Position numbers and translations under genes: made by a program. DNA of 64,000 nt from Fibrobacteria bacterium (GTDB taxonomy: Bacteria > Fibrobacterota > Fibrobacteria > UBA11236). The DNA is taken from the NCBI GenBank assembly GCA_043745805.1, contig JAYTSD010000001.1, forward strand, positions 161,315 through 225,314, in the 5' to 3' direction. This document shows positions 2,887-60,465 of this stretch, in pieces. Every line of letters starts with the position of its first letter. The first letter of the stretch is position 1. Below the pieces are notes generated by a model. The model was given only the letters and a program-made list of their open reading frames with translations, ran no database searches and had not been told where the DNA came from.

Positions 2887-3034
2887 ATTGCCTAATGAAT
2901 TAGTAGTTTTTTAGACTAAAGAAAATCGCTAAAAACTTAGCGGTTTTTTTTGCATTTCCTTGAGGAGTATTATTTTGAAAAAGCCATGGCTTACTTTTTT
3001 TTACAGGAGCATTTGTTCTTGGAAATTGAAAAAG

Positions 3035-5515
3035 ATGCCGGCTAGTTTTGTTAAATACTTTTACTTGGTAATTTTTATTCCGACTTTTCTATGCGCACAG
3101 GAAAATATTTCCAATAATGCTTTACCCGATATTCGCGATGCTTATGGTGTTTCCATTGCTGATTTTAATGGTGATGGATTGCTTGATATTTATATTGTGG
3201 GATTTCGCACTTTAAACAGAATGCTCATTAATCGCGGAGATAGAACTTTTATCGACAAAAGTATTGCAGCCGGTGTCGGTGGAAATTTGATGCCGAAGGG
3301 TATTAAGAATTTAGAGGTGGGAGCCGCTACGGCTGATTTTGATAACGATGGAGCCATAGATATATTGATTACTGGTTGGGGCGATGGCTTGGATTTATTA
3401 AAGAATAGAAAAGACGGAACTTTTTATTCAGTAACTTCGCAAATGGGATTAGCCCAAGATATTGATGCGAATATGGGCGTATGGGCCGATTTGGATCAGG
3501 ATGGGTATGTGGATTTATTGCTGACCAATGAACATGGACCTATTCAGATATATCATAATGATCATGGATTAAAATTCAATCAAATTCCACTAGCACAAAC
3601 GGGTCTTCCTTTAGACTCTGGCTCTCAAGGCGCTGCCTTTACGGATCTCGATTTGGATGGGGATTTAGATTTAGTCGTGGCGGGTTGGAAAAAACCACTA
3701 CAAATTTTTGAACAGATATCGCCCTTTTATTTTAAACAAATTCCTTTGAATATAAAGTTTAAGCCGGGCATGCGTTGCAATGCCATTTTGGTGGGTGACG
3801 TGGATAATGATGGGGATTTCGATTTAGTAGTGACAGTTCGTGAAGGGCATAATTTACTGTTAATTAATCAAAATAACCCTTCTTTAAAAACTCTGGATAT
3901 TTCCACGTGGAAGTCAAGAGTGGATTCTATTGTTAAGCCATTACATTTTGTGGAGCAAGCGCATGCCTGGGGAATTATTGACAGCGCGGATCACTATGGA
4001 GGGGCTTTGGCAGACTTCGATGGCGATGGGGATTTTGATTTATTATTAACCACGCGAGGCGCTAATTTCTACTACGAAAATTCGGAGCATCATTTTTATT
4101 ACCGTAACAATTTTGATTTAGGCCTCCCCCCCAATTTTTCTACTTACAATACTGGCTTTGTTCCTGCACCGGTTTTTGGAGGAAAATCCTTAGATTGGTT
4201 AATGGCGTCTCGTGATAGCGCCTGTCAAATTCAAGCTGGGTTAACGCCAAAGTTACCTAGGATAGAAGTTAAATTACATGCGGTAGAATCCAATGTCTCT
4301 TCCATCGGTGCACAAATTACTTTTTGGTCGCGAAAATTTGGGGATCCGGGTGAATGGCAATTACAACAATTCCAAGAAGTTTCTGGAGGTTATGGCTATT
4401 TCAGTTCTTATATAGGGCCATTATTATTTACTTTACCCGACACACTCCGTGAATATCAGTTTGCCGTACGATTCCCTAATGGAAAGCGTGTCGAGTACAA
4501 AATCAATCCTCACGACTCCATCATTGATATTTGGGAAAGTCGATTTTTTCCTGGAACATGGGCAAAAATATGGCATTGGTCCTATACCACCTATCATGAT
4601 CCCGTACGCCGAAAAAATGTACTCTTTGCCGTGGCAGCCTTTATTTTATTGACCCTGTTAAGTCGCACGGTATTAAGAATTATGGCCACCTCCATTGCAC
4701 GGAGACAAAATCAAGCGGAGTTAGTGCAAAAAAATGAGGAGTTACGCTTATTGATTGAAGAAGTGCAAAAAACTCAGCAACAACTTATTCATAGTGAAAA
4801 ATTAGCAGGCTTAGGACAGCTTGTTGCGGGAATTGCCCATGAATTAAATAATCCTATTGGTTTTATTTATGCGAATCTTCATCAGATCCAAAAATATTTA
4901 GATAGAAGTGATTTCTCAAACCTTGATGAAAAATCCAAACTCTTGGTGCAAAAAATGAAAGAGGCTCTGGCTGAATGCCAAGACGGTTCCATACGTATTC
5001 GCGACATTGTACAAAATCTACGCGGCCTTTCGCGTGCAGGAAATGCAGATGAAAGTAAATCACTGACCAAAAAAGTTTCGGATTTAAATTTGATGATTGA
5101 TAAAAGCGCTTTATTGGCGCAAACCAATTTCAGTAAGAATATTCAGTTACAAAAACAATATGCTGAACTTCCACCCATTTCTATAGATGAAACCCAAATC
5201 CAACAAGTGATATTGAATATTTTAGTCAATGCAGGACAGGCTTTAGATAAAGAAGGCAGTATATTTATTCATACCTTTGAGGAAGGCCCTTGGGCCGTTG
5301 TTTCCATAAAAGATAATGGACTGGGGATTAAACCTGATCATTTGCATAGAATTTTTGAGCCCTTTTTCACCACCAAGCCTGTGGGGCAGGGAATAGGATT
5401 GGGATTGCATCTTTCTTATCAAATCATCAAAGCACATGAAGGTTACATTACTGTTAACTCCGTTATGGGCCACGGTGCAGAATTTATAATTAAACTTCCT
5501 TTGGATAAAAATTAA
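3035..5515 (+). CDS. Sensor histidine kinase with extracytoplasmic FG-GAP-repeat/ASPIC-UnbV-like domain
   Basis: Signal peptide from ATG 3035; six DxDxDG-type FG-GAP loops (e.g. ADFNGDGLLDI, ADFDNDGAIDI); SNVSSIGA..EVSGGYGYFS ASPIC-like segment; one TM; H-box AHELNNP; N, G1 and G2 boxes (FFTTKPVGQGIGLGL). Confidence 0.9.
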   Translation: MPASFVKYFYLVIFIPTFLCAQENISNNALPDIRDAYGVSIADFNGDGLLDIYIVGFRTLNRMLINRGDRTFIDKSIAAGVGGNLMPKGIKNLEVGAATADFDNDGAIDILITGWGDGLDLLKNRKDGTFYSVTSQMGLAQDIDANMGVWADLDQDGYVDLLLTNEHGPIQIYHNDHGLKFNQIPLAQTGLPLDSGSQGAAFTDLDLDGDLDLVVAGWKKPLQIFEQISPFYFKQIPLNIKFKPGMRCNAILVGDVDNDGDFDLVVTVREGHNLLLINQNNPSLKTLDISTWKSRVDSIVKPLHFVEQAHAWGIIDSADHYGGALADFDGDGDFDLLLTTRGANFYYENSEHHFYYRNNFDLGLPPNFSTYNTGFVPAPVFGGKSLDWLMASRDSACQIQAGLTPKLPRIEVKLHAVESNVSSIGAQITFWSRKFGDPGEWQLQQFQEVSGGYGYFSSYIGPLLFTLPDTLREYQFAVRFPNGKRVEYKINPHDSIIDIWESRFFPGTWAKIWHWSYTTYHDPVRRKNVLFAVAAFILLTLLSRTVLRIMATSIARRQNQAELVQKNEELRLLIEEVQKTQQQLIHSEKLAGLGQLVAGIAHELNNPIGFIYANLHQIQKYLDRSDFSNLDEKSKLLVQKMKEALAECQDGSIRIRDIVQNLRGLSRAGNADESKSLTKKVSDLNLMIDKSALLAQTNFSKNIQLQKQYAELPPISIDETQIQQVILNILVNAGQALDKEGSIFIHTFEEGPWAVVSIKDNGLGIKPDHLHRIFEPFFTTKPVGQGIGLGLHLSYQIIKAHEGYITVNSVMGHGAEFIIKLPLDKN

Positions 5516-6969
5516 TGGAAAATCAAAAACCTGTATTACTGATTGTGGATGATGAACCTGCTATTATAAATAGCATTATTCGCCAATTAGAAGATGATTA
5601 TACCTGCTTAGGTGCGCCTAATGCCTCTTTAGCCAAGCATTTTTTTGCTGACCATAAGATAGCATGCGTGCTCAGCGATCAACGTATGCCGGGTGAATCG
5701 GGATCGGAATTTTTAGCATGGGTGCGAGAGCATTATCCCGATACGGTGCGCGTTTTAATTACGGGCTATAGTGATTTTGATAGCGTGGTCTCCGCAGTAA
5801 ATCAGGGACAAATTTATCAATTTTTAAATAAGCCTTGGGAGCCAGTGCAACTCGAAGCAGTAGTACGCCAAGCTGTGCGGATTTTTTCTTTGGTTGAAGA
5901 AAACAAACTTTTACAACAAGAATTAAAAAACCGCAATCATATTTTAGAACGCGAAAATTTATTATTGAAGTTCGAGACCATAAGCAATGGGGAACCGCTT
6001 TCGAAATTAGTGGGCATTAGCTCTAGTATGCAGAATTTAAAAAACAAAATTATGCACTTCTTGGTTTCGCAAAGTACCGTTTTGGTCACGGGAGAAAGTG
6101 GTACGGGTAAAGAATTGGTGGCGCATGCTTTACATTTTGGCGGTCCACGTAAAGACAAGCCCTTTGTGGCTCAAAACTGTGCTGCTTTAACTGATTCTCT
6201 TTTAGAGAGTGAATTATTTGGGCATGTAAAGGGTTCTTTTACGCATGCTACCGAAAATCGCATCGGGATTATTGAAAGTGCGCAAGGAGGCACTTTGTTC
6301 TTGGATGAAGTGGGAGATATGTCTTTAACCTTGCAAGCAAAGCTATTAAGGTTTTTGCAAGAAGGCGTGGTGCAGCCTATTGGTAGCCGCGTAGAGAAAC
6401 ATGTAGATGTCCGTATCATAGCGGCTACGCATCGCGATTTAGAGTCTATGGTGCAAGATAAAACTTTTCGCGAAGATTTATTTTATCGGCTTAATGTGGT
6501 GCCCTTGCGCACGCCCGCTTTGCGTGAGCGCTTGGATGACTTGCCCTTATTGATAGAACATTTTATGCAAAAAAAAGCGCTTAAGCTAAAAAAAACCTTA
6601 CCGACACTGTCTTCCGAGGCGCTGGAATTATTGAAAAAACATAATTTTCCTGGTAATGTACGTGAGTTAGAAAATGCAATTGAATATGCCATGAATCTTT
6701 CGGGGGAGAGAAATATTTTGTTACCCGAAGACATGCCCGATAGAATTCAAAGTAAAGCAGACGAAAAAGGGAAGCTAAATTCGCATACCTCCACCTCAAA
6801 TTTACCTTCTGAACTTTTATTAGAAGAAGCGGTAAATGCTTTGGAAATTGATTGGATACGTCGTGCTTTAAAAAGTTCGACGGGAAATATTTCCCATGCG
6901 GCAAAGTCCTTGGGCCTTAGTCGTCAGGGTTTGCATAATAAACTCGCGAAATATGGGATTAAAGAATAA
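5515..6969 (+). CDS. NtrC-family sigma54-dependent response regulator (REC-AAA+-Fis HTH)
   Basis: LIVDDE/SDQRMP receiver, GESGTGKE Walker A, ESELFGHVKGSFTHA, FLDEVG, FPGNVREL, C-terminal HTH; coupled to the kinase by TAATG. Confidence 0.95.
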   Translation: MENQKPVLLIVDDEPAIINSIIRQLEDDYTCLGAPNASLAKHFFADHKIACVLSDQRMPGESGSEFLAWVREHYPDTVRVLITGYSDFDSVVSAVNQGQIYQFLNKPWEPVQLEAVVRQAVRIFSLVEENKLLQQELKNRNHILERENLLLKFETISNGEPLSKLVGISSSMQNLKNKIMHFLVSQSTVLVTGESGTGKELVAHALHFGGPRKDKPFVAQNCAALTDSLLESELFGHVKGSFTHATENRIGIIESAQGGTLFLDEVGDMSLTLQAKLLRFLQEGVVQPIGSRVEKHVDVRIIAATHRDLESMVQDKTFREDLFYRLNVVPLRTPALRERLDDLPLLIEHFMQKKALKLKKTLPTLSSEALELLKKHNFPGNVRELENAIEYAMNLSGERNILLPEDMPDRIQSKADEKGKLNSHTSTSNLPSELLLEEAVNALEIDWIRRALKSSTGNISHAAKSLGLSRQGLHNKLAKYGIKE

Positions 6970-11005: not shown

Positions 11006-11323
11006 AGCAATAGACCCTTTTTCTCGGGCATCTTTTCCGTGAAAAACGATAACTTCTCATGAAAAATGTTCTTTATTCATGGTTTCCTATGAAAAATGAT
11101 ATCTTTTGCTGGTTAATTGTAATATTCGGAATTGGCTAGGCGCATCATAATTTAACCAAAAAATGAAATTCTACCCCGAATCCAGCTCCATTTTACACCG
11201 ATCAAAACCATTTTTAAGCGAGCCTCCTGCAAAATTCGTTTAAGAAATGATATAAGTGAATGCAAGAACTCTCACCCTCCTTTTTTGCTATAATCAAGCA
11301 TTAATCTTTTGTTAGGATGCTGG

Positions 11324-12709
11324 ATGGATAAGAATAAAGCACAAAGAGTTTTACAGGCGGGGCTCGATCGCCATGCAAATTTTGTGGAGATTTTCGAAGA
11401 AGAAACCCGTAACGCCTCAGTTTCCTTTCGCGATCGTAAAGTGGAATCGGCGACAGCGGGAACGGATTATGGTTTAGGTATTCGCTTGGTATATGGAACC
11501 GAAGTGCTTTATGCACATACAAGCAATGATGATGAAAATCATATTATTAAACTTATCGATAATTTAGCCCGTAGCCGCGGTGTTATCATTAATGAATCGT
11601 CAGAACCCACCGTCCATTTGGTAGGTAAGGTTTTTGAGAATAAACATATCATCACTAAGGATCCTCGCAAAGTAGGACAAGAGCAAAAATTATTATTGCT
11701 CAAATTAGCCGATAAAACCGCGCGGGATTTTTCTGATAAAATCACCCAAGTGTCAGTACGTGCGGCGGATATGGTGTCGCAAGTGATCATTAGTAATAGC
11801 GAAGGCTTATGGACCGAAGATACGCGCACGCGCTGTCGTTTTAATGTGAGCGTGACTGCAGAAGCGGGCGGTGAAATTTTTGTAGCTACTGAAGCACCCG
11901 GCACACAACGGGGTTTCGAATTTTTTGAAAGCTTGGACATTGTGCATTATACGCGGATGGCTGCCGAGCGCGCGGTACTGATGTTATCCGCCGGTTACGT
12001 ACAAGGTGGAAAAATGCCGGTGATACTTGGCAATGGTTTTGGCGGTGTGATATTTCATGAAGCTTGTGGCCATCTCTTAGAAACCGAAGCGGTGCGGCGC
12101 AAGGCCACACCCTTTGCGGATAAAGTGGGACAACTAATTGCGCATCCTTCGGTGACGGCCATTGATGATGGTACTATAGCCAATGCTTGGGGATCGATTA
12201 ATGTGGATGATGAAGGCAATGCCGTACAAAGAACGGTCTTAATTAAAGACGGCATCTTGCAAAATTATATGTCGGACCGAGTAGGCGCGCAAGAAACGAA
12301 TTCTCCTATCACGGGAAGTTCGCGACGCGAATCCTATCAATACTCACCCGTATCACGCATGCGCAATACCTTTATAGAAAAAGGCCAGCATAGTTTAGAA
12401 GAGATGTTGGCCTCTATGGGGAATGGCCTTTATGCCAAAAAAATGGGTGGCGGTTCGGTGAATCCGGCTACAGGGGAGTTTAATTTCTCAGCGGAGGAAG
12501 CCTACTTGGTACGTGACGGCAAAATTACCTCTCCGGTCCGTGGAGCAACATTAATCGGCAAAGGTCCAGAAATTCTTCCGTTGATTTCCATGGTCGGAAA
12601 AGACTTGGAAATGGCTGCGGGCATGTGTGGCGCATCTTCGGGATCCATTCCAGTAATGGTGGGGCAACCCACTTTAAAAGTGGATAATATTTTAGTGGGA
12701 GGTCGCTAA
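11324..12709 (+). CDS. tldD: TldD metalloprotease
   Basis: HEACGHLLE metal motif, DDEG, SRMRNT, GMCG, GQPTLKV. Confidence 0.93.
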   Translation: MDKNKAQRVLQAGLDRHANFVEIFEEETRNASVSFRDRKVESATAGTDYGLGIRLVYGTEVLYAHTSNDDENHIIKLIDNLARSRGVIINESSEPTVHLVGKVFENKHIITKDPRKVGQEQKLLLLKLADKTARDFSDKITQVSVRAADMVSQVIISNSEGLWTEDTRTRCRFNVSVTAEAGGEIFVATEAPGTQRGFEFFESLDIVHYTRMAAERAVLMLSAGYVQGGKMPVILGNGFGGVIFHEACGHLLETEAVRRKATPFADKVGQLIAHPSVTAIDDGTIANAWGSINVDDEGNAVQRTVLIKDGILQNYMSDRVGAQETNSPITGSSRRESYQYSPVSRMRNTFIEKGQHSLEEMLASMGNGLYAKKMGGGSVNPATGEFNFSAEEAYLVRDGKITSPVRGATLIGKGPEILPLISMVGKDLEMAAGMCGASSGSIPVMVGQPTLKVDNILVGGR

Positions 12710-14082
12710 TGGTTACCTCTACTCCCAAAACTTTTTCTGAAGAAACTTTAAAAGTTTCAGATGCCGTTGATTTTATGTGCTCTGAAGCGAAGCGTTTGGG
12801 CGCGGAGCAATACGATGCCGTGGTGGGCGAAAGTGAAGCCATGGGCCTTGAAGTGTTTGAAGGTAAAGTAAAGAGCACGGAAATATCGAATTCGCGTGGC
12901 ATTGGCATTCGCTTATTTAAAGATCAAAAACCGGGTTTTGCTTTTACCGAAAAAATGTCACGCGCGGCAATTTCACAAACCGTGCAAGATGCGATAAGCC
13001 ATACTTTACTTACGGATTCCGTGGATATTGAATTGCCATATCCCGAAAAATTACCCGACATTGATTTACTGCGCTTTGCTCCTGAATTGGAAAATGTGAC
13101 GCTCGATCAAATGAAAGAATTGTGTTCACAACTGGAAACTTTAGCGCGCGAAAAAGATCCACGCATTGATAATATTCCTTATTTAGGCATGAGTCGTTCA
13201 TCAGGAAGGTCTATTGTACAAAACTCCAAAGGCGTGAGTTATCATTCGCGATCGAATGTGATTTCGGGTGGAGTGGGTGTAGTGGCGAAGCAAGGCGAAA
13301 ATAAAAAAATGGGCGTGTATTCGCAGGGTGGTCGTTCCGTTTCGATTTTCCGTCCCGATTTTATGGCGAGTCAAGCCGTAGAGCGTGCCGTTGAATTATT
13401 GGATGCCGAAGCATTAACTTCTGGAATTTATCCAGTGGTATTTTCCCATCGTGCCAGTCCCCAAATTTTGTCGATGTTCTCTTCTCCTTATTATGCGGAG
13501 TCGGTGCAAAAAGGACAAAGTCGTTTAGCCGGTAAAATTGGAGAACGCATTGCGGTCGAGGCGTTTAACTTAAGCAGTCAGCCGCATTTGCAAGGTTTTC
13601 CAGGCTCGCAACTTTTTGATGGCGAAGGAGTCGTAACATCTCCGTTACAGGTAGTGAAGGACGGCGTTTTACAATCGTATCTGTATAATTTGGAATCGGC
13701 TAAAAAGGCGGGTGCCAAACCTACTGGTAATGGTGCGCGCGGCTATTCGGGTAAGGCCGGAACCGGTTTTGCGAATTTTATAGTGCCAAAGGGAAAGCAA
13801 ACTTTGGAAGAATTGTTAAGCACGTATCCCAAATGTTTTTATGTGGTCAAGCTCGAAGGCGGCTCGGGTTGTTCTTCTATTTCGGGTGAGATTTCTATCG
13901 GTGCACAAGGCTTTTTAATTGAACAAGGTAAACGTATTCGTCCGGTGGACAAGGTTACTTTGAGTACCAATTATTTTGATCTACTTATGGGCCTGCGAGG
14001 ATTTTCGGATACTTATGCCGATACTTTTTCGTCGGTGAAAGTTCCCGATATTTTAGTAGAAGGTATTGCGGTTTCGGGTTGA
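12709..14082 (+). CDS. pmbA: TldE/PmbA partner subunit
   Basis: FDGEGV, TGNG.R and SGEIS.G motifs; lacks HExxxH; coupled to tldD. Confidence 0.9.
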   Translation: MVTSTPKTFSEETLKVSDAVDFMCSEAKRLGAEQYDAVVGESEAMGLEVFEGKVKSTEISNSRGIGIRLFKDQKPGFAFTEKMSRAAISQTVQDAISHTLLTDSVDIELPYPEKLPDIDLLRFAPELENVTLDQMKELCSQLETLAREKDPRIDNIPYLGMSRSSGRSIVQNSKGVSYHSRSNVISGGVGVVAKQGENKKMGVYSQGGRSVSIFRPDFMASQAVERAVELLDAEALTSGIYPVVFSHRASPQILSMFSSPYYAESVQKGQSRLAGKIGERIAVEAFNLSSQPHLQGFPGSQLFDGEGVVTSPLQVVKDGVLQSYLYNLESAKKAGAKPTGNGARGYSGKAGTGFANFIVPKGKQTLEELLSTYPKCFYVVKLEGGSGCSSISGEISIGAQGFLIEQGKRIRPVDKVTLSTNYFDLLMGLRGFSDTYADTFSSVKVPDILVEGIAVSG

Positions 14083-45445: not shown

Positions 45446-46918
45446 TCAAAAACTTTTAACCTCTATCGCTTGATTTTCCCATTCCTTGTAGGATTGTTGG
45501 CGTTTTTCTTCTATGAGGCGAATTCTCATGGAATATTTATTTGCTCCCATTTGTGCTTTTTTCGCATCCTCGTTTAAAGTAGTAGCTTGCACGCTTTTAT
45601 TTTCTTGCGCTAATCTTTTTTCAATTTCCTCCTCACTAGGGGCAATGCTGGAATCAATCGCCGCTTCAATGAGGTTTTCGGTTCCCGCTTTACTTTTGAA
45701 TGAAGCATCTTGCATCGCATTGGCGATTGCAAGGGATGTTCTTGATTTTACTAGACGATCGTGAATAGTCAATTCAACTTTATCGAATGGTTGTTGGCCT
45801 TGGCCATGGCGTATTTTTACAACTTTAAGGGTCCAATTTCCCATACTTAAAAATTCAGGTCCAATACTATCGCCTTCTCGAATAGAGGGGGTAACATTCA
45901 CGATCCAATGTCTAAGCTCAAGAGGTAAATCATGATCTTCTAGCGTCAAGTATTTTGGTCTTCTGGATGTAGTTTCTTGTCGTGAAACCGGTGGCGCAAG
46001 GTCGGCATCAACGGAAATCGTGTCGGGATTTTGAAATGCAGAGGGATGATTGCGATAATAAGTGAACGTTGCAAAAGCATCCCCTGCACTGTCGGGTTCC
46101 GGCAAAGCAGCTAAGACTGCAAGGGTGGGAAGGGCTTGCTGAAAAGATATATTTCGAGTTTTACGAACTCCATTAAAACGCAGCAAAGCGGCTCCATAAG
46201 GAAAGGCTAAACGAATAATTTCTCGATTATGCATTTGCTTCGCTTGGGTTTGAATTTCTGAAGGTAATAGGGTATCTGCGATGTTAACCCATTGTAAGTG
46301 GTTTTTCTTCTCACCAAGGAGATTAAGGGAATCAATTTCGGAAGAATCGCTGGAGGCAATAATGGAATATTTTCGTTCTTCATGGGATTGGAAAAGTTGG
46401 GCATAACGAGCATATAGCGCGTAAAGTAATGAATCACCCCATTGTTCTTGTATCATTTGGTTGCGAGTTTTTTCAAGGACTATGGCCAATACTTTTCGTG
46501 AGGGAACATTATCTAGTAATTGGGCATGATCCTCTAAATAATGTGCATTGAGTTTTTGGGCTAAAACTGCATGACGAATTCGTGCGATTAAACTTGTAGC
46601 TAAGGTAACGGAATCCGACTCTGGTTCTACCGAAGCTAAGGCTTTATTGAAAACTCCTACCGTAACAAGGCATTCGCCATTTGTTTTCCGGCTTGCTAAA
46701 CAATCGCTAGAATCTCCTGAAATTTTGAGCGACTCTCGTGCTTGGTTGATTTTGTTTTGAATATTTTTTTCTTTAGATAAACGGTTTGCAAGTATTCTTG
46801 CATTCACAACTATTTGTTTTGCTTCGAGAGCTTCTTTATCTTCAGAATAATTTGCGGCTTGCAAATGTGAAAAGGCAAGCAATGTTACTAATAAAATTCC
46901 AAATGTAGTGCATTTCAT
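45446..46918 (-). CDS. Secreted protein with two degenerate parvulin/PpiD-like repeats (paralog of 47721-49136)
   Basis: Signal peptide; YY.NH...F..PD, LP.E, G..IGP.....G.W and PFDKV...I segments; shared blocks with the 47721 ORF. Confidence 0.6.
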   Translation of the reverse strand: MKCTTFGILLVTLLAFSHLQAANYSEDKEALEAKQIVVNARILANRLSKEKNIQNKINQARESLKISGDSSDCLASRKTNGECLVTVGVFNKALASVEPESDSVTLATSLIARIRHAVLAQKLNAHYLEDHAQLLDNVPSRKVLAIVLEKTRNQMIQEQWGDSLLYALYARYAQLFQSHEERKYSIIASSDSSEIDSLNLLGEKKNHLQWVNIADTLLPSEIQTQAKQMHNREIIRLAFPYGAALLRFNGVRKTRNISFQQALPTLAVLAALPEPDSAGDAFATFTYYRNHPSAFQNPDTISVDADLAPPVSRQETTSRRPKYLTLEDHDLPLELRHWIVNVTPSIREGDSIGPEFLSMGNWTLKVVKIRHGQGQQPFDKVELTIHDRLVKSRTSLAIANAMQDASFKSKAGTENLIEAAIDSSIAPSEEEIEKRLAQENKSVQATTLNEDAKKAQMGANKYSMRIRLIEEKRQQSYKEWENQAIEVKSF

Positions 46919-46953
46919 GTGCTAGAAAAATCCTGTACTTTATAATAAATAAC

Positions 46954-46983
46954 AAAAAAGCCACCCCAGTAGCCTGGAGTGGC
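46954..46983 (-). terminator. Intrinsic terminator/attenuator after the 47000-47602 gene
   Basis: Minus strand GCCACTCCAG-GCTA-CTGGGGTGGC-TTTTTT. Confidence 0.75.
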
Positions 46984-46999
46984 CCAGAATTAATTAGGA

Positions 47000-47602
47000 T
47001 TAAAGTTTACGAGCAATCCAAACATTGCCATCGCCATTAATAGTTGCGCCAGCGATGCTGACATCACCTGTGCAACCGGCTTCAGTAGTCGCAGCAAGAA
47101 TCAAACCACCAGAAAACATGAATGCATCGGTGTTATGCGCTTCTGACCATGCAGACACTCTAATTCTAGGATTGCTGAAGCGGAAAGTTGTCACGTTTGT
47201 GAACCAAATACGCGCTTTTGGAAATAACGTGCCACCTGCATCATCAGACAGTTTTTGATAAACTTGGCTGTTGTCCTTAATCCATATTACTGGATCAGCA
47301 GCAACTCCAGAACTCCATGCGCCGTATTCAACGCAAACATTTTGATTGGTACCAGCAGCAGTTGTAATGTCAAAAAACTTTACAACTTGCGCATTAAGTG
47401 GATTGGAAAAAGTTGAGTAATTTTGATGACCAGCCAAATTGGATATGGCAGCAAAATCAATCTTGGTAGACAAGGCTCTGCCGACAGTACCTAAATATTG
47501 TTCGAATGAAACCTGGGCTTGTGCGGTTTTGGCCGTGAGTCCTAATCCAAGGGTAACTAAAAGAGCAGAAAGCCCGAGTAATTTTGAATTCTTAAAAATC
47601 AT
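47000..47602 (-). CDS. Secreted beta-rich protein of unknown function (paralog of 49230-49802)
   Basis: Signal peptide (AQA); DFA..AGH, VVKF, ADP.IW, LSDDAGGTLF, two Cys. Confidence 0.75.
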   Translation of the reverse strand: MIFKNSKLLGLSALLVTLGLGLTAKTAQAQVSFEQYLGTVGRALSTKIDFAAISNLAGHQNYSTFSNPLNAQVVKFFDITTAAGTNQNVCVEYGAWSSGVAADPVIWIKDNSQVYQKLSDDAGGTLFPKARIWFTNVTTFRFSNPRIRVSAWSEAHNTDAFMFSGGLILAATTEAGCTGDVSIAGATINGDGNVWIARKL

Positions 47603-47650
47603 TTTTATTCCTTTGTTAAGAGTGACGGGTTAAATATCTGTCACTTAAAG

Positions 47651-47681
47651 GTTAGATGTGGTACGCAAGGAATTTGTCTCA
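47651..47681 (-). promoter_or_regulatory. ECF-sigma-like promoter TGAGAC-N16-ACATCTAA
   Basis: Minus strand TGAGACAAATTCCTTGCGTACCACATCTAAC; same motif and spacing at 49966-49996 (+). Confidence 0.6.
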
Positions 47682-47720
47682 TAATTTTTTTGAAAAAGAT
47701 CAGACTATCTTTTCAGTCAA

Positions 47721-49136
47721 TTAATCGGAATTGCTTTTGGATATTTCGCTTACAGAAGGGTTAATAAAATGGAAAACCAATTGGTTCTTATACCATTCTC
47801 GTTTTTGCTCTTCTAGCTGAGAGTTGGGATTTGATACTTGACTCGATAGATACGCGCTGACAATGCTTTTCCAAAGGTCATTTTCTTTTGTTTGTGATTC
47901 ACTTTTGGCAATTGTTTCAGAATTCCACTTTGGAGTACCGAATAGGAATCTCGCAATTTGTGTTCGACACTCTAATAATGCAATTGGCATCCCGCCATTA
48001 CGAATATTTAATGGAAGGAAATACCAAGTTCCCAAAAAAGTTCGCATTGGGCCTAAAAGATGTCCAACATGAACTCGATAAAGATTTAATTTTTCTTGAA
48101 TTTCTTCCGGCAACTGAAATTGCTGCACAACTAGTGAATGTATTTGAGTGGTATCTTTCTGAATATTTTTAGGTGATGCAAAATGTTTTTTATCATGACT
48201 GTTTGGTAATAACCACATCCTGTATTGCACAGTATCAGGACTCAAAAATTCTTGCCGATGCGCTAGATAATAATCTGAAATCACTTTCTCTCTCAGTATC
48301 TCCAGTTCTTTAGGAACATTTTGCATTGAAATTAGCATTGGCACTGCTGCTTCAAAAGAAATATTAGGTGTACTTTTTTTCTGCGCAAAATGTAAATAAG
48401 CGAAGCCGAACGGTAAGTGAATAGGTCCTTTGCTTTCACCCAAGGACATTTTGGCGCTAGCCGTAGCAAGTTGTGAAGGCAAAGACTCCTGTGGTAATAG
48501 ATCCCACTTTGCAGTAGTAAATTTGTATAGAGAGTCAACCAAAATAGAATCGCTTGACGATATCACTTGGTATTGCTTTTCTTCCTTACTTTGAAAAAGA
48601 GAGGCATAATATTTTCGATATAATATATGTAAAGCAGAATCACCCTGATGTTTACGAAACGACTTTAGCCGTTCCTCTTTAGCGACTTGAAAAACTTTGT
48701 TTAAGCTATCCTTAGCATCTGGCTGAAGAGGATAATTAGAAAGAAACTTTTCATCCAGTAGTATCTTTAATAGTGCAGTTTGCTCTTTTTCTATATCGCA
48801 TAAGTTGGGGAAATTCGGGCCTACATTTTGGAGAGAAAAGTTTTGACTTGCTAAACTTCGATTATACTCATCAACGGATAGAAGACATGATTCACTTGTA
48901 GGTTCATAGGCTATGCACTCGGATCCAACTTCATTCACGTACATGGCTTCAATTAGCGCTTGACCATGTTCTTTATCTGTTTTGTTTTTTTGGTCAGCCT
49001 CTGATCTAGAAATAGAATCATTTCTTAAAAGCGAAGAGATGTCTCGACCTTTTTCAATTATAGGTGAAGCCGCTAGTACCGGAAGAGCAGTAAGTATCCA
49101 TAAAATGGCCGTGATTAAAATGAAAATATTTTTCAT
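47721..49136 (-). CDS. Secreted protein with two degenerate parvulin/PpiD-like repeats (paralog of 45446-46918)
   Basis: Signal peptide; LFQSKEEKQYQVI, LPSQL..GESKGPIHLPFG, YYLAHRQEFLSPD, LPEEI..GHLLGPMRTFLGTW. Confidence 0.65.
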   Translation of the reverse strand: MKNIFILITAILWILTALPVLAASPIIEKGRDISSLLRNDSISRSEADQKNKTDKEHGQALIEAMYVNEVGSECIAYEPTSESCLLSVDEYNRSLASQNFSLQNVGPNFPNLCDIEKEQTALLKILLDEKFLSNYPLQPDAKDSLNKVFQVAKEERLKSFRKHQGDSALHILYRKYYASLFQSKEEKQYQVISSSDSILVDSLYKFTTAKWDLLPQESLPSQLATASAKMSLGESKGPIHLPFGFAYLHFAQKKSTPNISFEAAVPMLISMQNVPKELEILREKVISDYYLAHRQEFLSPDTVQYRMWLLPNSHDKKHFASPKNIQKDTTQIHSLVVQQFQLPEEIQEKLNLYRVHVGHLLGPMRTFLGTWYFLPLNIRNGGMPIALLECRTQIARFLFGTPKWNSETIAKSESQTKENDLWKSIVSAYLSSQVSNPNSQLEEQKREWYKNQLVFHFINPSVSEISKSNSD

Positions 49137-49184
49137 ATAAGTAACTAATTAATGAAGTAGTTTTTTTTAAACTTTTGTTTTGAA

Positions 49185-49219
49185 GCGGGAATCCAAAACA
49201 TAAAATTTAGGACCCCCGC
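49185..49219 (-). terminator. Stem-loop after the 49230-49802 gene
   Basis: Minus strand GCGGGGGTCC...GGATTCCCGC; weak U-tail. Confidence 0.5.
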
Positions 49220-49229
49220 GATAAATTAG

Positions 49230-49802
49230 TTAGCCGTTGGTTAAAACGCCATTTATGACTTTAAGCCACGGAACGCCACCATTTCCAGTGGTGCAAGACG
49301 ATTCACTTTTGTTAGAGCGATTTACATTAATTGTGAATTGTGCATTGTTCCATGAGGGACTAAAGGCCGCGATTGAAAGGTTTTTAAAGGATTGAAACCC
49401 CAACAAATAAACATTGGCACGGGAAAAAAGTGTACCACCGAAATCATCATTTAAAACCGCATTAACTCCAGCGTTATTAACGTACCAAATACGCGTATCG
49501 GCGACCTCATTGGGGATAAAATCTGGATGAACCGTCATGATTTCAAAACAAGCGCCTGTAGAAGCATTACTTAATAATTGCAAGCTATGAAATTTGACCA
49601 CAGAACCTGCAAAGGTACCGGTGGGTTGCGATGCATGGCCGGCAATTGTGGTAGATGCGAAATCCACGTAATACCGCATATTGGTTTCAGTAGTAGATGA
49701 ATTAGTTATACCAGTGCCTGATTGTGCAAACACTGATGCTGTAAGAGCAAGCATACCTGCTACTCCAATACTTAATGTCTTAGATATTGATTTAATGAAC
49801 AT
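49230..49802 (-). CDS. Secreted beta-rich protein of unknown function (paralog of 47000-47602)
   Basis: AAGGAG RBS, signal peptide (VFA); DFA..AGH, VVKF, ADTRIW, LNDDFGGTLF, two Cys. Confidence 0.78.
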   Translation of the reverse strand: MFIKSISKTLSIGVAGMLALTASVFAQSGTGITNSSTTETNMRYYVDFASTTIAGHASQPTGTFAGSVVKFHSLQLLSNASTGACFEIMTVHPDFIPNEVADTRIWYVNNAGVNAVLNDDFGGTLFSRANVYLLGFQSFKNLSIAAFSPSWNNAQFTINVNRSNKSESSCTTGNGGVPWLKVINGVLTNG

Positions 49803-50049: not shown

Positions 50050-50577
50050 ATGAATCTAAATGAAAACAAATACCAACCCATATCTTTGTTAAAGCGAAAT
50101 GATCACCGGCGCAGCTTCTCGAATAATTATAAGCTAGACATTTTAAAACGAGTTGAGGAAATCAAAGAGAGTAGGCAAGGTAGTGTAAAAGCCTTTTTAA
50201 GCAATGAAGGTATTTATGCTTCTCATTTAACCGCATGGAAAAAACAAATATCCCAAGGCAAATTAGGATTGGGAAAAAGAGGTCGGCCAATAAAAAACTC
50301 TGATGAATTTCGTTTAGAAATTACTAATCTCAGACAACGATTAATAATAATGGAGAAAAGAGCTTTGGAAGCTGAGCAAATCGTACGCGTGCAAATGGCG
50401 TATGTTAAAGGTGCAGCATTGAGATTAAAAAGACGAGATCGCGGTTTAATATCGGAAATTGTTTCTCAGGTAAAATCAAATTGTTCGGTTTCTGCATTAT
50501 GTGATGCCCTAGCGCTGACGCGTCAAGATTTTTATAGAACCATAAAACCTTTGCTCAATAAAAATTTACATCACTAA
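50050..50577 (+). CDS. IS3-family OrfA-like HTH protein fused to an OrfB-like N-terminal HTH; no DDE domain
   Basis: RRSFS..YKL.IL, EGIYASHLTAWKKQ, KRGRP, coiled coil, then SVSALCDALALTRQDFYR and stop; no downstream transposase ORF seen. Confidence 0.65.
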   Translation: MNLNENKYQPISLLKRNDHRRSFSNNYKLDILKRVEEIKESRQGSVKAFLSNEGIYASHLTAWKKQISQGKLGLGKRGRPIKNSDEFRLEITNLRQRLIIMEKRALEAEQIVRVQMAYVKGAALRLKRRDRGLISEIVSQVKSNCSVSALCDALALTRQDFYRTIKPLLNKNLHH

Positions 50578-51542: not shown

Positions 51543-52256
51543 TTAAGGCAGATTATTCCAAACTTGCGAAGTTACTTTGTTACCTAACTGAAGTTTAAGC
51601 AAAATCGTCTGATGAATATCTACCGCATTGGAAAAAAAGGAATAATGATACTTTCCTTTTTCTTGAGGTCCATCTAACCAAGTAGTGAGTATTTTACCTT
51701 GTAAATCCAAAGCTTGGAAAATAACTTTTTCGGAAGAGGATAAAGTATATATTACGTCCACATTCGGGTTACCCTTATTCGCATGGATGCTTTCAGCAAA
51801 TTCATTCAAGGCTTCATTATGTAACAAAGCCGAAGTTCCTTGTATGGTGAAATTGCCGCTCACCAAGGTATAAATCTGTCCACCTTTGGAATTCGGACCC
51901 GTACCTGAGGAATCCGTGCTGTTGTTTGCATCGGTGCAATAATTAGCAGAAGTAGTACCTTTCCATTGGCATACTCGAATTCTTGCAGTAGTGGTAGCAA
52001 TATTCGGAACCGTCCAAATATATCTGGTTGCCGATCCTAATAAATTGGTGGTGGTTTGATTTACCCAAGTTTTACCATCAATAGATAAGGCTATAGCTGT
52101 GCCCTCATGTTTAATGGGGACTGTCCAAATAAGTGTGTCCATTCTACCGGGAATAAGAGTTCTTCCTGTATGGGCTGCAATGTTCGGCCCACCCAAATGT
52201 GCAGATGCTAGGCCAATAAACATACCCAAGGCTACCGTGATAATTTTACATTGCAT
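51543..52256 (-). CDS. Secreted protein with Ig-like domain and C-terminal sorting-like (FlgD/T9SS-CTD-like) domain
   Basis: AGGAGA RBS, signal peptide; LSIDG.TW, Y.WTVPNI.TTTARIRV; C-terminal V....LDLQGK...W..G....GKY. Confidence 0.65.
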   Translation of the reverse strand: MQCKIITVALGMFIGLASAHLGGPNIAAHTGRTLIPGRMDTLIWTVPIKHEGTAIALSIDGKTWVNQTTTNLLGSATRYIWTVPNIATTTARIRVCQWKGTTSANYCTDANNSTDSSGTGPNSKGGQIYTLVSGNFTIQGTSALLHNEALNEFAESIHANKGNPNVDVIYTLSSSEKVIFQALDLQGKILTTWLDGPQEKGKYHYSFFSNAVDIHQTILLKLQLGNKVTSQVWNNLP

Positions 52257-52557
52257 ATAGTTAATCTCCTCTTTATGTCTGAAACATAATCTATAAGTGA
52301 TATTTTCGTGTTCAAAAAAAACAAAAAAAGTGTACAAATGCCTTCCGCAAAAAAGGCAAACGCATGGATTTTATCAATAGGATAAAGGATTTAAATTAAA
52401 CTTGCAATGCACTGAAAATCAAAAAACTCGATAAAGCGCACCTAAACCAAGCGCGAGACATATTGGACTATAAAGGCGCGTATCCCAATATGCAAACAGT
52501 CCAACTTTTTCACGTTTGGAAAAGCCGACTTATTCGTACAAAATATTTTATAAGTCA

Positions 52558-58320: not shown

Positions 58321-60186
58321 CTAATCGATGCTCCCATAATCTCGTTTCCAGTTTTTCTTAGGCGGAGTACTATTTTTACCCATGGGTAAATTAGTCGTGA
58401 TGAGAATATCCGATTCGGTGACCATGCGCTCACAATAAAAAAGATCAAAAGGATAGGACGAACCGGTAGACAGTCCTAAATAGTCAAAATTTACTGATCC
58501 AGAGAGAGAGACATGATCGCCTCCCAAATCCATAACCAAAGTATTATTAATGAATAGCCATACATCATCATCACCTTTGAAATCGAAACTCATACCGGGA
58601 GCCATTGCAAATTGACCATGCATTTCCATGCAAAAGGAATAATTACGACTCTTTCCTTCTTTCCCCCAACCTTTTCCATCAATCGGAAAAAAGCCTGAAT
58701 CCGATGCACTACCCGTTTTGGCATATCTATAGAAATAAGTTCCTAATTCCCCTTGGCGAATAAACGGCAGAGAATCTTTGATAACATAATTTTTATAAGC
58801 GGCGGTATCTTTAGTACCCTTAACACTTTTAGGTGTGCAATCATTGTACTTGGAATTGTCTCCATTGCCATCACGCGGCATCCAATTGTTTGTAGCCGTA
58901 TCGGCAGGATTCCAAGGAGTAAACCATCTTTCCACCGCACAATTATAAAAGATATTACTTGCATTAGTAGTAAGCAGAGGTTTACCAATAGAGTCGCGCG
59001 CAAAATAACTAGCATCCAGAGTGGTATATTTTAATTTGTTTGTTTGAACCATGCCGGTATGAGCCGATCCACCACCACTTCCAAAAGGAAAATTTTGAAA
59101 TTCAGGATTACCCGATGCGGAAATGTTACTCGTGCTATAGTCATAATAAATTACTCTTGCCCACGAAGTATCCGGCGGAAGCACGGCGCTAGAGTGTAAA
59201 GAGAGTTTTTGTAATAAGGATGTTTTATATACGGAATCTTTTCCACCTTTTTGCATATAACTTTCTGCGAAAATAGAATAGGTTTCACTTCCTAAAGGAG
59301 ATACTCGAAAATTGACCTTGGTTGAACCTACGACAATGGAATCGAGTGTAGAATCAATGCCTGAATTTGAATTGTCATAGGGTGCTAGGCGATTTGCAGG
59401 AATAGGCTTTTCGGTAATCCATTCAGGTCCTGACCACCCTACTTGTCCATAATCTCCACCGCCGCCTTCTTTATGATAGTACTCGAAGTAATAACGTTTC
59501 CCACCCGTTAGCATTTGTGGATCCGACACTACTTTGCAATTATTGCATTGTGAGGAGGAGGGTTGACTCGCTAAAGTAGGCCAGCCACCGACTAAATAGT
59601 TACTACTCTGTGCCATGTAAGAGTAATTATATGCAATGGGTTGTGAGCTACGATTTGCTTTGGCTTCATCCGTACTTAAATAAAATTCCGATTGATCGTC
59701 TGCACGCACATAAAAAGTATAATATCCTGTAGTGGGCGCATAAATATATCCTTGCCAAAAAAGTCCATAATCATCTTTGTAAGTTAAATTACCATTATAT
59801 CCATTACTGTTCCAGTAGGAGCCAAGATAATTGGATGTTACCTCTATACTATTGCCTAATGAAGCGTTTTGCACGGCGGCATAAAAACTTTTAACATTCG
59901 AGCCATTACTACTCCAAAGCTTGGCCGTAATTTTTCCACGACCGCCAGTGTTTGTATACAAAGTATCGCGCCCACTCAAAACTTCATCGGCGAGCATAGT
60001 CATTATTCCATCGGCAGCATAAAAGGATTGAACTTTATTTTTATAATTTTGGGCCGTAACACGCGTGGTATATGAGTTAAATACCATACCTACTGCCATA
60101 GCGGAAATGCCCAGCATCATTAAAACCGAAAAAATTAGGATAAATCCCTTTTGCGAATTTAAATGAGTTTTCCCACTGAACATCAT
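58321..60186 (-). CDS. PilX-like N-terminus + PA14 + fibro-slime domain protein
   Basis: QKG|FILIF prepilin-like cleavage site and SFYAADG; PA14 (W.GYI.AP.TG.YTF...DD.S..YL, HKEGGGGD); fibro-slime (FFPIDG, NYSFCME.H, F.GDDDVW.FIN..LV.DLGG.H, FYCER). Confidence 0.88.
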   Translation of the reverse strand: MMFSGKTHLNSQKGFILIFSVLMMLGISAMAVGMVFNSYTTRVTAQNYKNKVQSFYAADGIMTMLADEVLSGRDTLYTNTGGRGKITAKLWSSNGSNVKSFYAAVQNASLGNSIEVTSNYLGSYWNSNGYNGNLTYKDDYGLFWQGYIYAPTTGYYTFYVRADDQSEFYLSTDEAKANRSSQPIAYNYSYMAQSSNYLVGGWPTLASQPSSSQCNNCKVVSDPQMLTGGKRYYFEYYHKEGGGGDYGQVGWSGPEWITEKPIPANRLAPYDNSNSGIDSTLDSIVVGSTKVNFRVSPLGSETYSIFAESYMQKGGKDSVYKTSLLQKLSLHSSAVLPPDTSWARVIYYDYSTSNISASGNPEFQNFPFGSGGGSAHTGMVQTNKLKYTTLDASYFARDSIGKPLLTTNASNIFYNCAVERWFTPWNPADTATNNWMPRDGNGDNSKYNDCTPKSVKGTKDTAAYKNYVIKDSLPFIRQGELGTYFYRYAKTGSASDSGFFPIDGKGWGKEGKSRNYSFCMEMHGQFAMAPGMSFDFKGDDDVWLFINNTLVMDLGGDHVSLSGSVNFDYLGLSTGSSYPFDLFYCERMVTESDILITTNLPMGKNSTPPKKNWKRDYGSID

Positions 60187-60465
60187 ACACTCCCCTATTA
60201 ACATTGTAGAGCTTGGCGAGCAAAATCAAGGATTTATTTTCCTATTAAACATATGCGATCTTTGCGTATTTTAAGGGGGAAAATGGGCTTAAACCCATTC
60301 TCCCCCTGGCCTCGGCTTCCACTGTTTAAGCGGAGCGCTGCAGATCGGGAATGGGAGTTCCGCAAAGGTAAACAGGGGTGATCCTCATCCACCCCCTCAT
60401 TTATTTTCCGATGGGGAAATTGTAATGGCAATCCGTGTAGGTTTTTTTAATTTAGCCCATGCAGT

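Follow-up and report, generated by a model that had tools for sequence, protein, structure and literature searches.

Genes at the locus

We analysed a 64,000-nt stretch of contig JAYTSD010000001.1 from a Fibrobacteria bacterium (GCA_043745805.1; the whole stretch is hereafter the window), in which four consecutive genes on the minus strand form two copies of a two-gene module. Each module encodes a small exported protein, which we call A, and a larger exported protein, which we call B. In the direction of transcription the genes are A1 (49230-49802, 190 aa), B1 (47721-49136, 471 aa), A2 (47000-47602, 200 aa) and B2 (45446-46918, 490 aa), with spacers of 93 nt between A1 and B1, 118 nt between B1 and A2 and 81 nt between A2 and B2. 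An earlier note, made from the letters alone, had read this arrangement as a small secreted subunit followed by a dedicated, degenerate parvulin-like chaperone, duplicated in tandem, and the four open reading frames (ORFs) lie in exactly the order, strand and positions that it gave. All four proteins start with a hydrophobic, signal-like N-terminus, in agreement with the signal peptides that had been assigned to them; a rough heuristic finds such an N-terminus in 66 of the 70 A-family members and in 20 of the 24 of the B family, the exceptions being truncated or over-extended starts.

The two copies of each gene are paralogs beyond chance, as had been claimed, with 28% identity across 137 columns for A1 and A2 (E = 1e-10) and 28% across 332 columns for B1 and B2 (E = 2e-27). 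The motifs said to be common to A1 and A2 (DFA..AGH, VVKF, AD..IW, L.DD.GGTLF..A, A(W/F)S...N and E..CT) are all visible in their alignment. Those described for B1 and B2 are likewise visible in the B alignments, except that the conserved cysteines C74 and C84 are spaced 9 residues apart and not 7. In the whole genome (99% complete; 3.95 Mb in 50 contigs) these four are the only A and B genes, apart from a single weak B-like C-terminal match (E = 0.002). The assembly contains no 16S gene. A translational GTPase of 604 aa, encoded on another contig, matched 33 loci when compared with named genomes, 11 of them bearing a Fibrobacter-type label; in the range of 67-72% identity are three MAGs labelled Fibrobacteria or Fibrobacteres, and the top match (72%) is labelled Bifidobacteriales. 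Together with a fibro-slime domain protein encoded in the window, this leads us to regard the host as an uncultured, sediment-dwelling member of the Fibrobacterota; for a 4.7-kb stretch, four DNA runs are listed, all of one sediment-metagenome study and two of them perhaps the source, and no RNA run.

B resembles SurA-type chaperones and has two parvulin-like domains

Profile searches and structure prediction show B to be an exported protein of the SurA/PpiD/PrsA type with two parvulin-like domains. Against Pfam, B1 scores 22.2 bits with Rotamase_2 (PF13145), under the 27-bit cut-off, and B2 has no match; the two database homologs of B1 (P0002 and P0003, 49% and 47% identical) clear the cut-off at ~36 bits, and 17 of the 24 B-family members match the model, with a best E-value of 7.1e-17. 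When a profile of all 24 sequences was compared with the PDB, it found SurA (E = 6.8e-5) and HP0175 (E = 0.0022 over 186 profile positions), the latter match reaching into the helices ahead of the parvulin domain. The AlphaFold2 (AF2) model of B1 is poor overall, with a predicted local distance difference test score (pLDDT) of 51, and contains two beta-alpha-beta units, at residues ~185-255 and ~302-379, with pLDDT of about 70-85 and helices on both sides. Foldseek ranked SurA (1m5y) first for this model (E = 6.5e-6 over 410 aligned columns, at a template-modelling score of only 0.13-0.16) and also returned PEB4, CBF2, PrsA and PpiD (3rfw at E = 2.5e-4, 5ez1, 4wo7 and 8zht). These matches agree with the PpiD/SurA resemblance that the earlier note had drawn from motifs, and with the parvulin fold on which its reading of B depended. 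The nearest atlas clusters to B are rotamase clusters (score 0.96); a related-loci look-up with the B alignment or with the Lhr helicase gave no match.

The two domains also resemble each other (hhalign probability 93.2%, E = 2.9e-7, 46 columns), bearing out the proposal of two parvulin-like copies per protein. B1 is laid out as a signal peptide, a helical N-terminal region with a C74/C84 hairpin, parvulin-like domain 1 (~184-256), parvulin-like domain 2 (~300-380) and a helical C-terminal tail with W448; two parvulin domains with helical flanks and a signal peptide are likewise the layout of SurA-type chaperones. Ten residues of B are invariant (C74, C84, D196, S197, G244, D301, L309, P311, P343 and G369), and the two cysteines among them probably form a disulfide hairpin. 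SurA is a near-universal, single-gene housekeeping factor; B occurs in 13 of 61 related genomes and at up to 13 places in one. Six other proteins of the host genome, all encoded on other contigs, match Rotamase_2 above its cut-off, so B1 and B2 are extra, specialised paralogs.

The catalytic pair of parvulins consists of a histidine in the first beta-strand and another in the last, at positions known from Pin1 and Par10. Both parvulin-like domains of B have lost this pair. We located the last-strand position by alignment to SurA: in domain 1 the consensus 'GfAll' pairs with 'GFHIL' and 'GWHLI' of SurA and places Ala246 at the histidine position, and in domain 2 the position is occupied by the near-invariant Trp371. 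The first strands of both domains have no histidine (consensus VLASSDS and PDTxxxxxWLxP), and the only B column with histidine in at least 30% of members, H293, is located in the linker. The catalytic histidine motifs that could not be made out by eye are thus replaced at the aligned positions, and B would act as a holdase or steric foldase and not as a prolyl isomerase. In the A family, the share of members with proline is at most 57% at any column, which fits a helper without need of isomerase activity.

A belongs to an unnamed exported family with a distantly PPC-like core

Neither A1 nor A2 matched any Pfam or NCBIfam model, in line with the earlier statement that A belongs to no named family. 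Among 70 members of the A family nothing convincing emerged from Pfam either, the best match being CBM_35_2 (E = 0.0013) in one of the 70, and for all four window proteins PADLOC gave no match and NCBIfam nothing meaningful. A word-based search retrieved one homolog of A2 (76% identical). An exhaustive profile search of a 1.8-billion-protein library retrieved 120 cluster representatives at E ≤1e-3 (41 at E ≤1e-10), nearly all of ~180-220 aa, and A defines an unnamed family of exported proteins of ~200 aa. In an alignment of 70 sequences C85, D102 and C170 never vary, D119 and D120 hardly do, the mature part contains exactly two cysteines in 64 members, and the predicted secondary structure is all-beta with ~9 strands.

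The weak tail of the A profile search contained two proteins with multiple pre-peptidase C-terminal (PPC) repeats, P0097 and P0101 (library-wide E = 1.8e-5 and 3.4e-5). From these two long proteins we took 12 PPC repeats, which hhalign matched to the A alignment with a probability of 89.5% (E = 2e-6, 86 columns). The aligned span corresponds to positions 16-102 of 105 in PPC and to residues 68-160 in A1, and the acidic D...DD positions of the two families coincide. The Pfam model of PPC (PF04151) matched none of the 70 A members at E ≤0.1, a PDB profile search with A gave a chance match only (E = 0.54), and an atlas search gave no lead (score 0.76). At the profile level A is a distant relative of the PPC jelly-roll domain, a likeness that favours a binding module over a fibre subunit. 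Only one of the 120 representatives is a clear fusion: the metagenomic P0108 carries an A domain (5-183, E = 1.2e-33) followed by a CBM6 domain (199-313). Fused forms of at least 458 aa were not found, which is weak evidence given the nature of the search.

A and B adjoin across genomes and diversify together

To describe the distribution of the module, we turned to related genomes. A is present in 10 and B in 13 of the 61 examined, and in a sample of 296 genomes from the phylum, confident A matches occur in only 10 genomes: the host's own, 8 of 31 others of the same family and 1 of 6 of a neighbouring family. Two further A matches in this sample are weak. The cassette is confined to a few uncultured sediment bacteria. 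The earlier proposal required that A and B homologs co-occur in other genomes, and they do: all 24 confident A places in the phylum sample adjoin a B match, and of the full set of 24 loci with B outside the window, whose ORFs we scanned with the A and B profiles, 20 had an adjacent A. At a 21st locus the neighbour is a weak, 126-aa mini-A, and at another a contig end truncates the locus. One or two A genes lie directly 5' of B on the same strand in 18 of 21 modules outside the window, so that the order A before B, which had been put forward for checking as a constant feature, is the rule without being universal.

No third gene recurs among the 91 neighbouring ORFs of the 24 loci. Carbohydrate-active neighbours are scattered among them (a GH43, a 3-keto-disaccharide hydrolase twice, a CBM6-phosphoesterase and a SASA esterase twice), and the neighbours of the modules in the window are unrelated (SDR, AraC and an IS3 fragment). 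The 16 window neighbours and the 91 ORFs include no pilus or secretion gene travelling with the A-B pair. A chaperone-usher fibre was considered and rejected, no usher or PapD-like family being present in the same two sets.

To compare the histories of the two genes, we computed A and B distance matrices for 18 modules, a set without the second A copies, without L032, which nearly duplicates L031, and without L015, L022, L023 and L033, where A is truncated. The matrices correlate with a Mantel r of 0.70 (0 of 5000 permutations as high), and the nearest-neighbour module is identical for A and B in 12 of the 18. A1/B1 group with L014 and L016, whose A proteins are 47-50% identical to A1, compared with 28% for A2; A2/B2 group with L019 and L027. 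Since each window module is nearer to modules of other genera than to its neighbour, the duplication must be old, and a recent tandem duplication of the window modules is ruled out by the same identities. These comparisons show that the modules have been inherited and duplicated as units, and that those in the window are two old subfamilies lying side by side. The earlier suggestion of diversification after duplication holds in that A and B have diversified together, with the duplication itself being old.

The genome richest in these genes is G011, where B occurs at 13 places and A at 10 or more, some of them decayed. In two of its copies, L022 (G011:C100) and L023 (G011:C106), B is fragmented and A truncated, and the B match of L022 holds one TAG stop; the G011 copies look like birth-and-death evolution. 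Seven modules (L014, L015, L018, L021, L030, L031 and L033) lie on short contigs of 2.9-6.5 kb, which may reflect repeats or strain variation breaking assemblies at the cassettes.

A stable hairpin follows A in most modules

Both A-B spacers in the window contain a hairpin directly 3' of the A stop codon, on the minus strand. In the A1-B1 spacer (hairpin at 49185-49219), RNA folding gave -21.8 kcal/mol with a z-score of -4.32, and in the A2-B2 spacer (46948-46985) -26.2 kcal/mol with a z-score of -4.42; in each case 0 of 200 shuffled sequences was as stable. The hairpin after A2, which was also found by a terminator scan, has 12 pairs, 7 of them G-C, followed by a U-run, and was called terminator-like. 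The B1-A2 spacer has no comparable fold (z = -1.07). Across modules, the 80 nt 3' of the A stop reach z ≤-2 in 11 of 17, compared with 1 of 16 for the 80 nt 3' of the B stop.

By eye, which gives only weak evidence here, ribosome-binding sequences (GGAG or AAGGA) stand near the ATG of A1 and A2; B1 shows no such site, and in B2 there is just an AGGA at some distance. A sigma-70 promoter scan found no enrichment (10 matches compared with 13.3 expected) and none in the spacer upstream of A1. The position of the hairpin, together with the ribosome-binding sites, suggests that A exceeds B in amount, and such an excess fits a product and its helper better than a 1:1 complex or a toxin-then-immunity pair.

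A proposed client and its own chaperone

Our favoured interpretation, to which we give a probability of roughly one half, is that each module encodes an abundant exported jelly-roll protein together with its own non-enzymatic SurA-type chaperone. A would be an abundant, exported, disulfide-bonded jelly-roll, distantly of the PPC or collagen-binding type, and most likely a lectin- or adhesin-like binding module located in the envelope or outside the cell, a function suggested by the distant PPC likeness and the one CBM6 fusion. B would be a periplasmic holdase or steric foldase of SurA architecture that binds its own A and helps its folding, disulfide formation or onward delivery. The hairpin after A would terminate or stabilise most transcripts at that point, giving far more A than B, and the modules would pass on and duplicate as units, splitting into old subfamilies. 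The earlier idea of a subunit with its cognate foldase survives in part: B is chaperone-like and A and B are linked and co-diversifying, but the fibre subunit finds no support, with no usher, pilus or secretion gene at hand. A complex prediction for A1 (27-190) with B1 (24-471), made from alignments and without controls, scored 0.00 and carries no weight either way.

Several observations weigh against this interpretation. No SurA_N model of Pfam matches any of the 24 B members, and the N-terminal region of B is modelled by AF2 with low confidence (pLDDT <50). At two loci, L034 and L035, B is without a detectable A and has other small signal-peptide ORFs beside it, and gene order varies, with B first in two modules and a divergent arrangement in one. 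The hairpin statistics outside the window use mononucleotide shuffles, 6 of the 17 modules are without a strong post-A hairpin (in L020 and L024 the A tested was not the B-adjacent copy), and Shine-Dalgarno reasoning may not hold in this phylum. Finally, the Mantel correlation and the neighbour concordance reflect the common history of linked genes, and not necessarily co-evolution driven by contact.

The same evidence could be arranged differently. A might be an accessory or adaptor subunit that gives the chaperone B its specificity for third-party cargo within a stoichiometric complex; strict adjacency and joint diversification would suit any obligate pair, and a PPC-like binding domain could recognise outer-membrane or secreted proteins as cargo. 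We consider this unlikely, because a hairpin or terminator between the genes and one or two A per B indicate unequal amounts and not a 1:1 ratio, and no candidate cargo gene recurs nearby. Alternatively, A and B could together form a small polysaccharide-binding or polysaccharide-processing unit, with A a carbohydrate-binding or catalytic jelly-roll and B its scaffold in place of its foldase. Fibrobacterota are noted for polysaccharide degradation, and the A-CBM6 fusion (in one representative only), the carbohydrate-active genes beside several modules and the invariant or nearly invariant acids D102, D119 and D120 of A all lean this way. Yet no neighbour family recurs over the 24 loci, B resembles periplasmic chaperones only, and the best CAZy-type Pfam match among the 70 A members is the unconvincing CBM_35_2, which together make a polysaccharide unit a distinctly unlikely explanation.

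Two further possibilities appear more remote. The many divergent copies in G011 and the decayed ones among them, the frequent short contigs and the joint diversification recall polymorphic toxin-immunity loci, and A could be an effector secreted against the envelope chaperones of rivals, with B a decoy or immunity paralog. The fold matches of B include 8hm3, a structure in which a secreted protein of Bacteroides is in complex with a SurA-like peptidyl-prolyl isomerase. However, a terminator-like hairpin ahead of an immunity gene would be self-harming, B is exported and, at ~480 aa, unlike typical small immunity proteins, and we found no toxin domain in A (Pfam, 70 members), no PADLOC match and no linked secretion-system gene, so that we regard a competition function as highly improbable. 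Scarcely better placed is the idea that A is a small outer-membrane beta-barrel which B, as a dedicated SurA-type escort, delivers to the machinery for beta-barrel assembly. The usual end signal of such barrels is a C-terminal aromatic residue, and only 6 of the 70 A members have F, W or Y as their last residue; the invariant cysteine pair and the PPC profile match point instead to a soluble sandwich. What speaks for a barrel is the all-beta prediction of ~9 strands, along with the status of outer-membrane barrels as known SurA clients, as excerpts of PMC11401910 and PMC7195389 describe them.

Returning to an exported jelly-roll with its own chaperone, we can also imagine a stronger version, which we offer tentatively and hold to be doubtful as it stands: B proteins might be the first 'private' SurA-type chaperones, catalytically dead SurA paralogs matched one-to-one to single soluble jelly-roll clients and co-diversifying with them, and the cassette, present at least 10 times in one genome, might be an expandable device by which these uncultured Fibrobacterota assemble and renew a changing repertoire of exported binding proteins. 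SurA-type chaperones have been studied as generalists for outer-membrane barrels, whereas B is tied gene-for-gene to one small, soluble-looking client. If the proposal is true, the modules would offer a natural system for studying client recognition, with cognate and non-cognate pairs inside one genome. The analysis also delimits the A family (120 cluster representatives, without a Pfam model) and links it to a PPC or collagen-binding-type fold, which would be its first functional handle. Practical impact is limited for now, the family being narrow.

Other features of the window, genome and related loci

Directly upstream of A1 lies a lone IS3-family OrfA-like fragment on the plus strand (50050-50577; E = 1.4e-7, far under the model cut-off), and G+C content between 42 and 54 kb of the window is 0.35-0.40, below much of the rest. 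With the fragment and the low G+C, the module may sit in a variable region. Farther upstream, a 264-aa signal-peptide protein (51543-52337, minus strand) matches nothing in Pfam or NCBIfam; to the eye its C-terminus is reminiscent of a sorting domain for type IX secretion, with no supporting model. A 627-aa protein (58321-60204, minus strand) has a PA14 domain and GLEYA-like sequence along with a fibro-slime domain (TIGR02148, E = 3.8e-33), a marker-like feature of Fibrobacter relatives. On the plus strand, the regions 2960-6969 and 11309-14082 are ordinary-looking, with an FG-GAP-repeat sensor histidine kinase beside a sigma-54 activator and a tandem TldD/PmbA peptidase pair. Elsewhere in the genome, contigs C9, C48, C42 and C37 end in fragments of the EF-Tu gene, where a duplicated tuf apparently broke the assembly.

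Among the related loci, L035 (G034:C7; 1813-4498, 110-1708) stands apart. Ahead of its distant, 627-aa B-like gene stands, in place of A, an unrelated signal-peptide ORF of 244 aa with abundant N/Y/T repeats, and a caspase-domain (Peptidase_C14) protein is encoded upstream. Judging from this locus, B-type helpers may serve other small exported proteins too.

Comparison with known systems

A client gene beside its dedicated parvulin-type helper is a known kind of arrangement. New here are the client family itself, the helper with two degenerate parvulin domains that is linked to it one-to-one, the hairpin, which is attenuator-like, and the expansion into numerous cassettes that diversify jointly; the parts of the literature that our searches returned hold no report of a PPC-like protein and a SurA-like gene as partners, nor of such a pair in Fibrobacterota. 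The closest parallel in gene logic is LipA-LipH of Pseudomonas aeruginosa, in which, according to an excerpt of PMC13381987, the lipase gene lies beside that of a cognate periplasmic foldase required before export. As in the A-B modules, a client gene adjoins that of its periplasmic helper, but there is no homology: B matches Rotamase_2 only, A has no Pfam match and would be a jelly-roll and not a lipase, and B, judged by its cleavable-looking signal peptide, would not be membrane-anchored as the LipH foldase is.

The client also has a partial counterpart. The PPC domain (PF04151, which includes the clostridial collagen-binding domains) is typically the tail of a peptidase, whereas A stands alone, extends the shared core at its N- and C-terminal ends and has a cysteine pair that is invariant. 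For B, fold and profile matches lead to PrsA, PEB4, HP0175 (CBF2) and PpiD, which are ATP-independent helpers of exported proteins; these have one parvulin domain and broad client ranges, where B has two such domains, both degenerate, and a neighbour gene of its own. SurA of E. coli (1m5y) comes nearest to B in architecture, being exported and having its two parvulin-type domains set between a helical N-terminal region and a C-terminal tail. B differs from it in having no catalytic histidine in either domain, no match to SurA_N in Pfam and no housekeeping distribution, and in being tied to one small, soluble-looking partner gene and not to barrel proteins. The chaperone activity of SurA resides in the core formed by its N- and C-terminal regions and not in its isomerase activity, as stated in an excerpt of PMC2556385, and a non-enzymatic chaperone role for B would be consistent with that division of labour.

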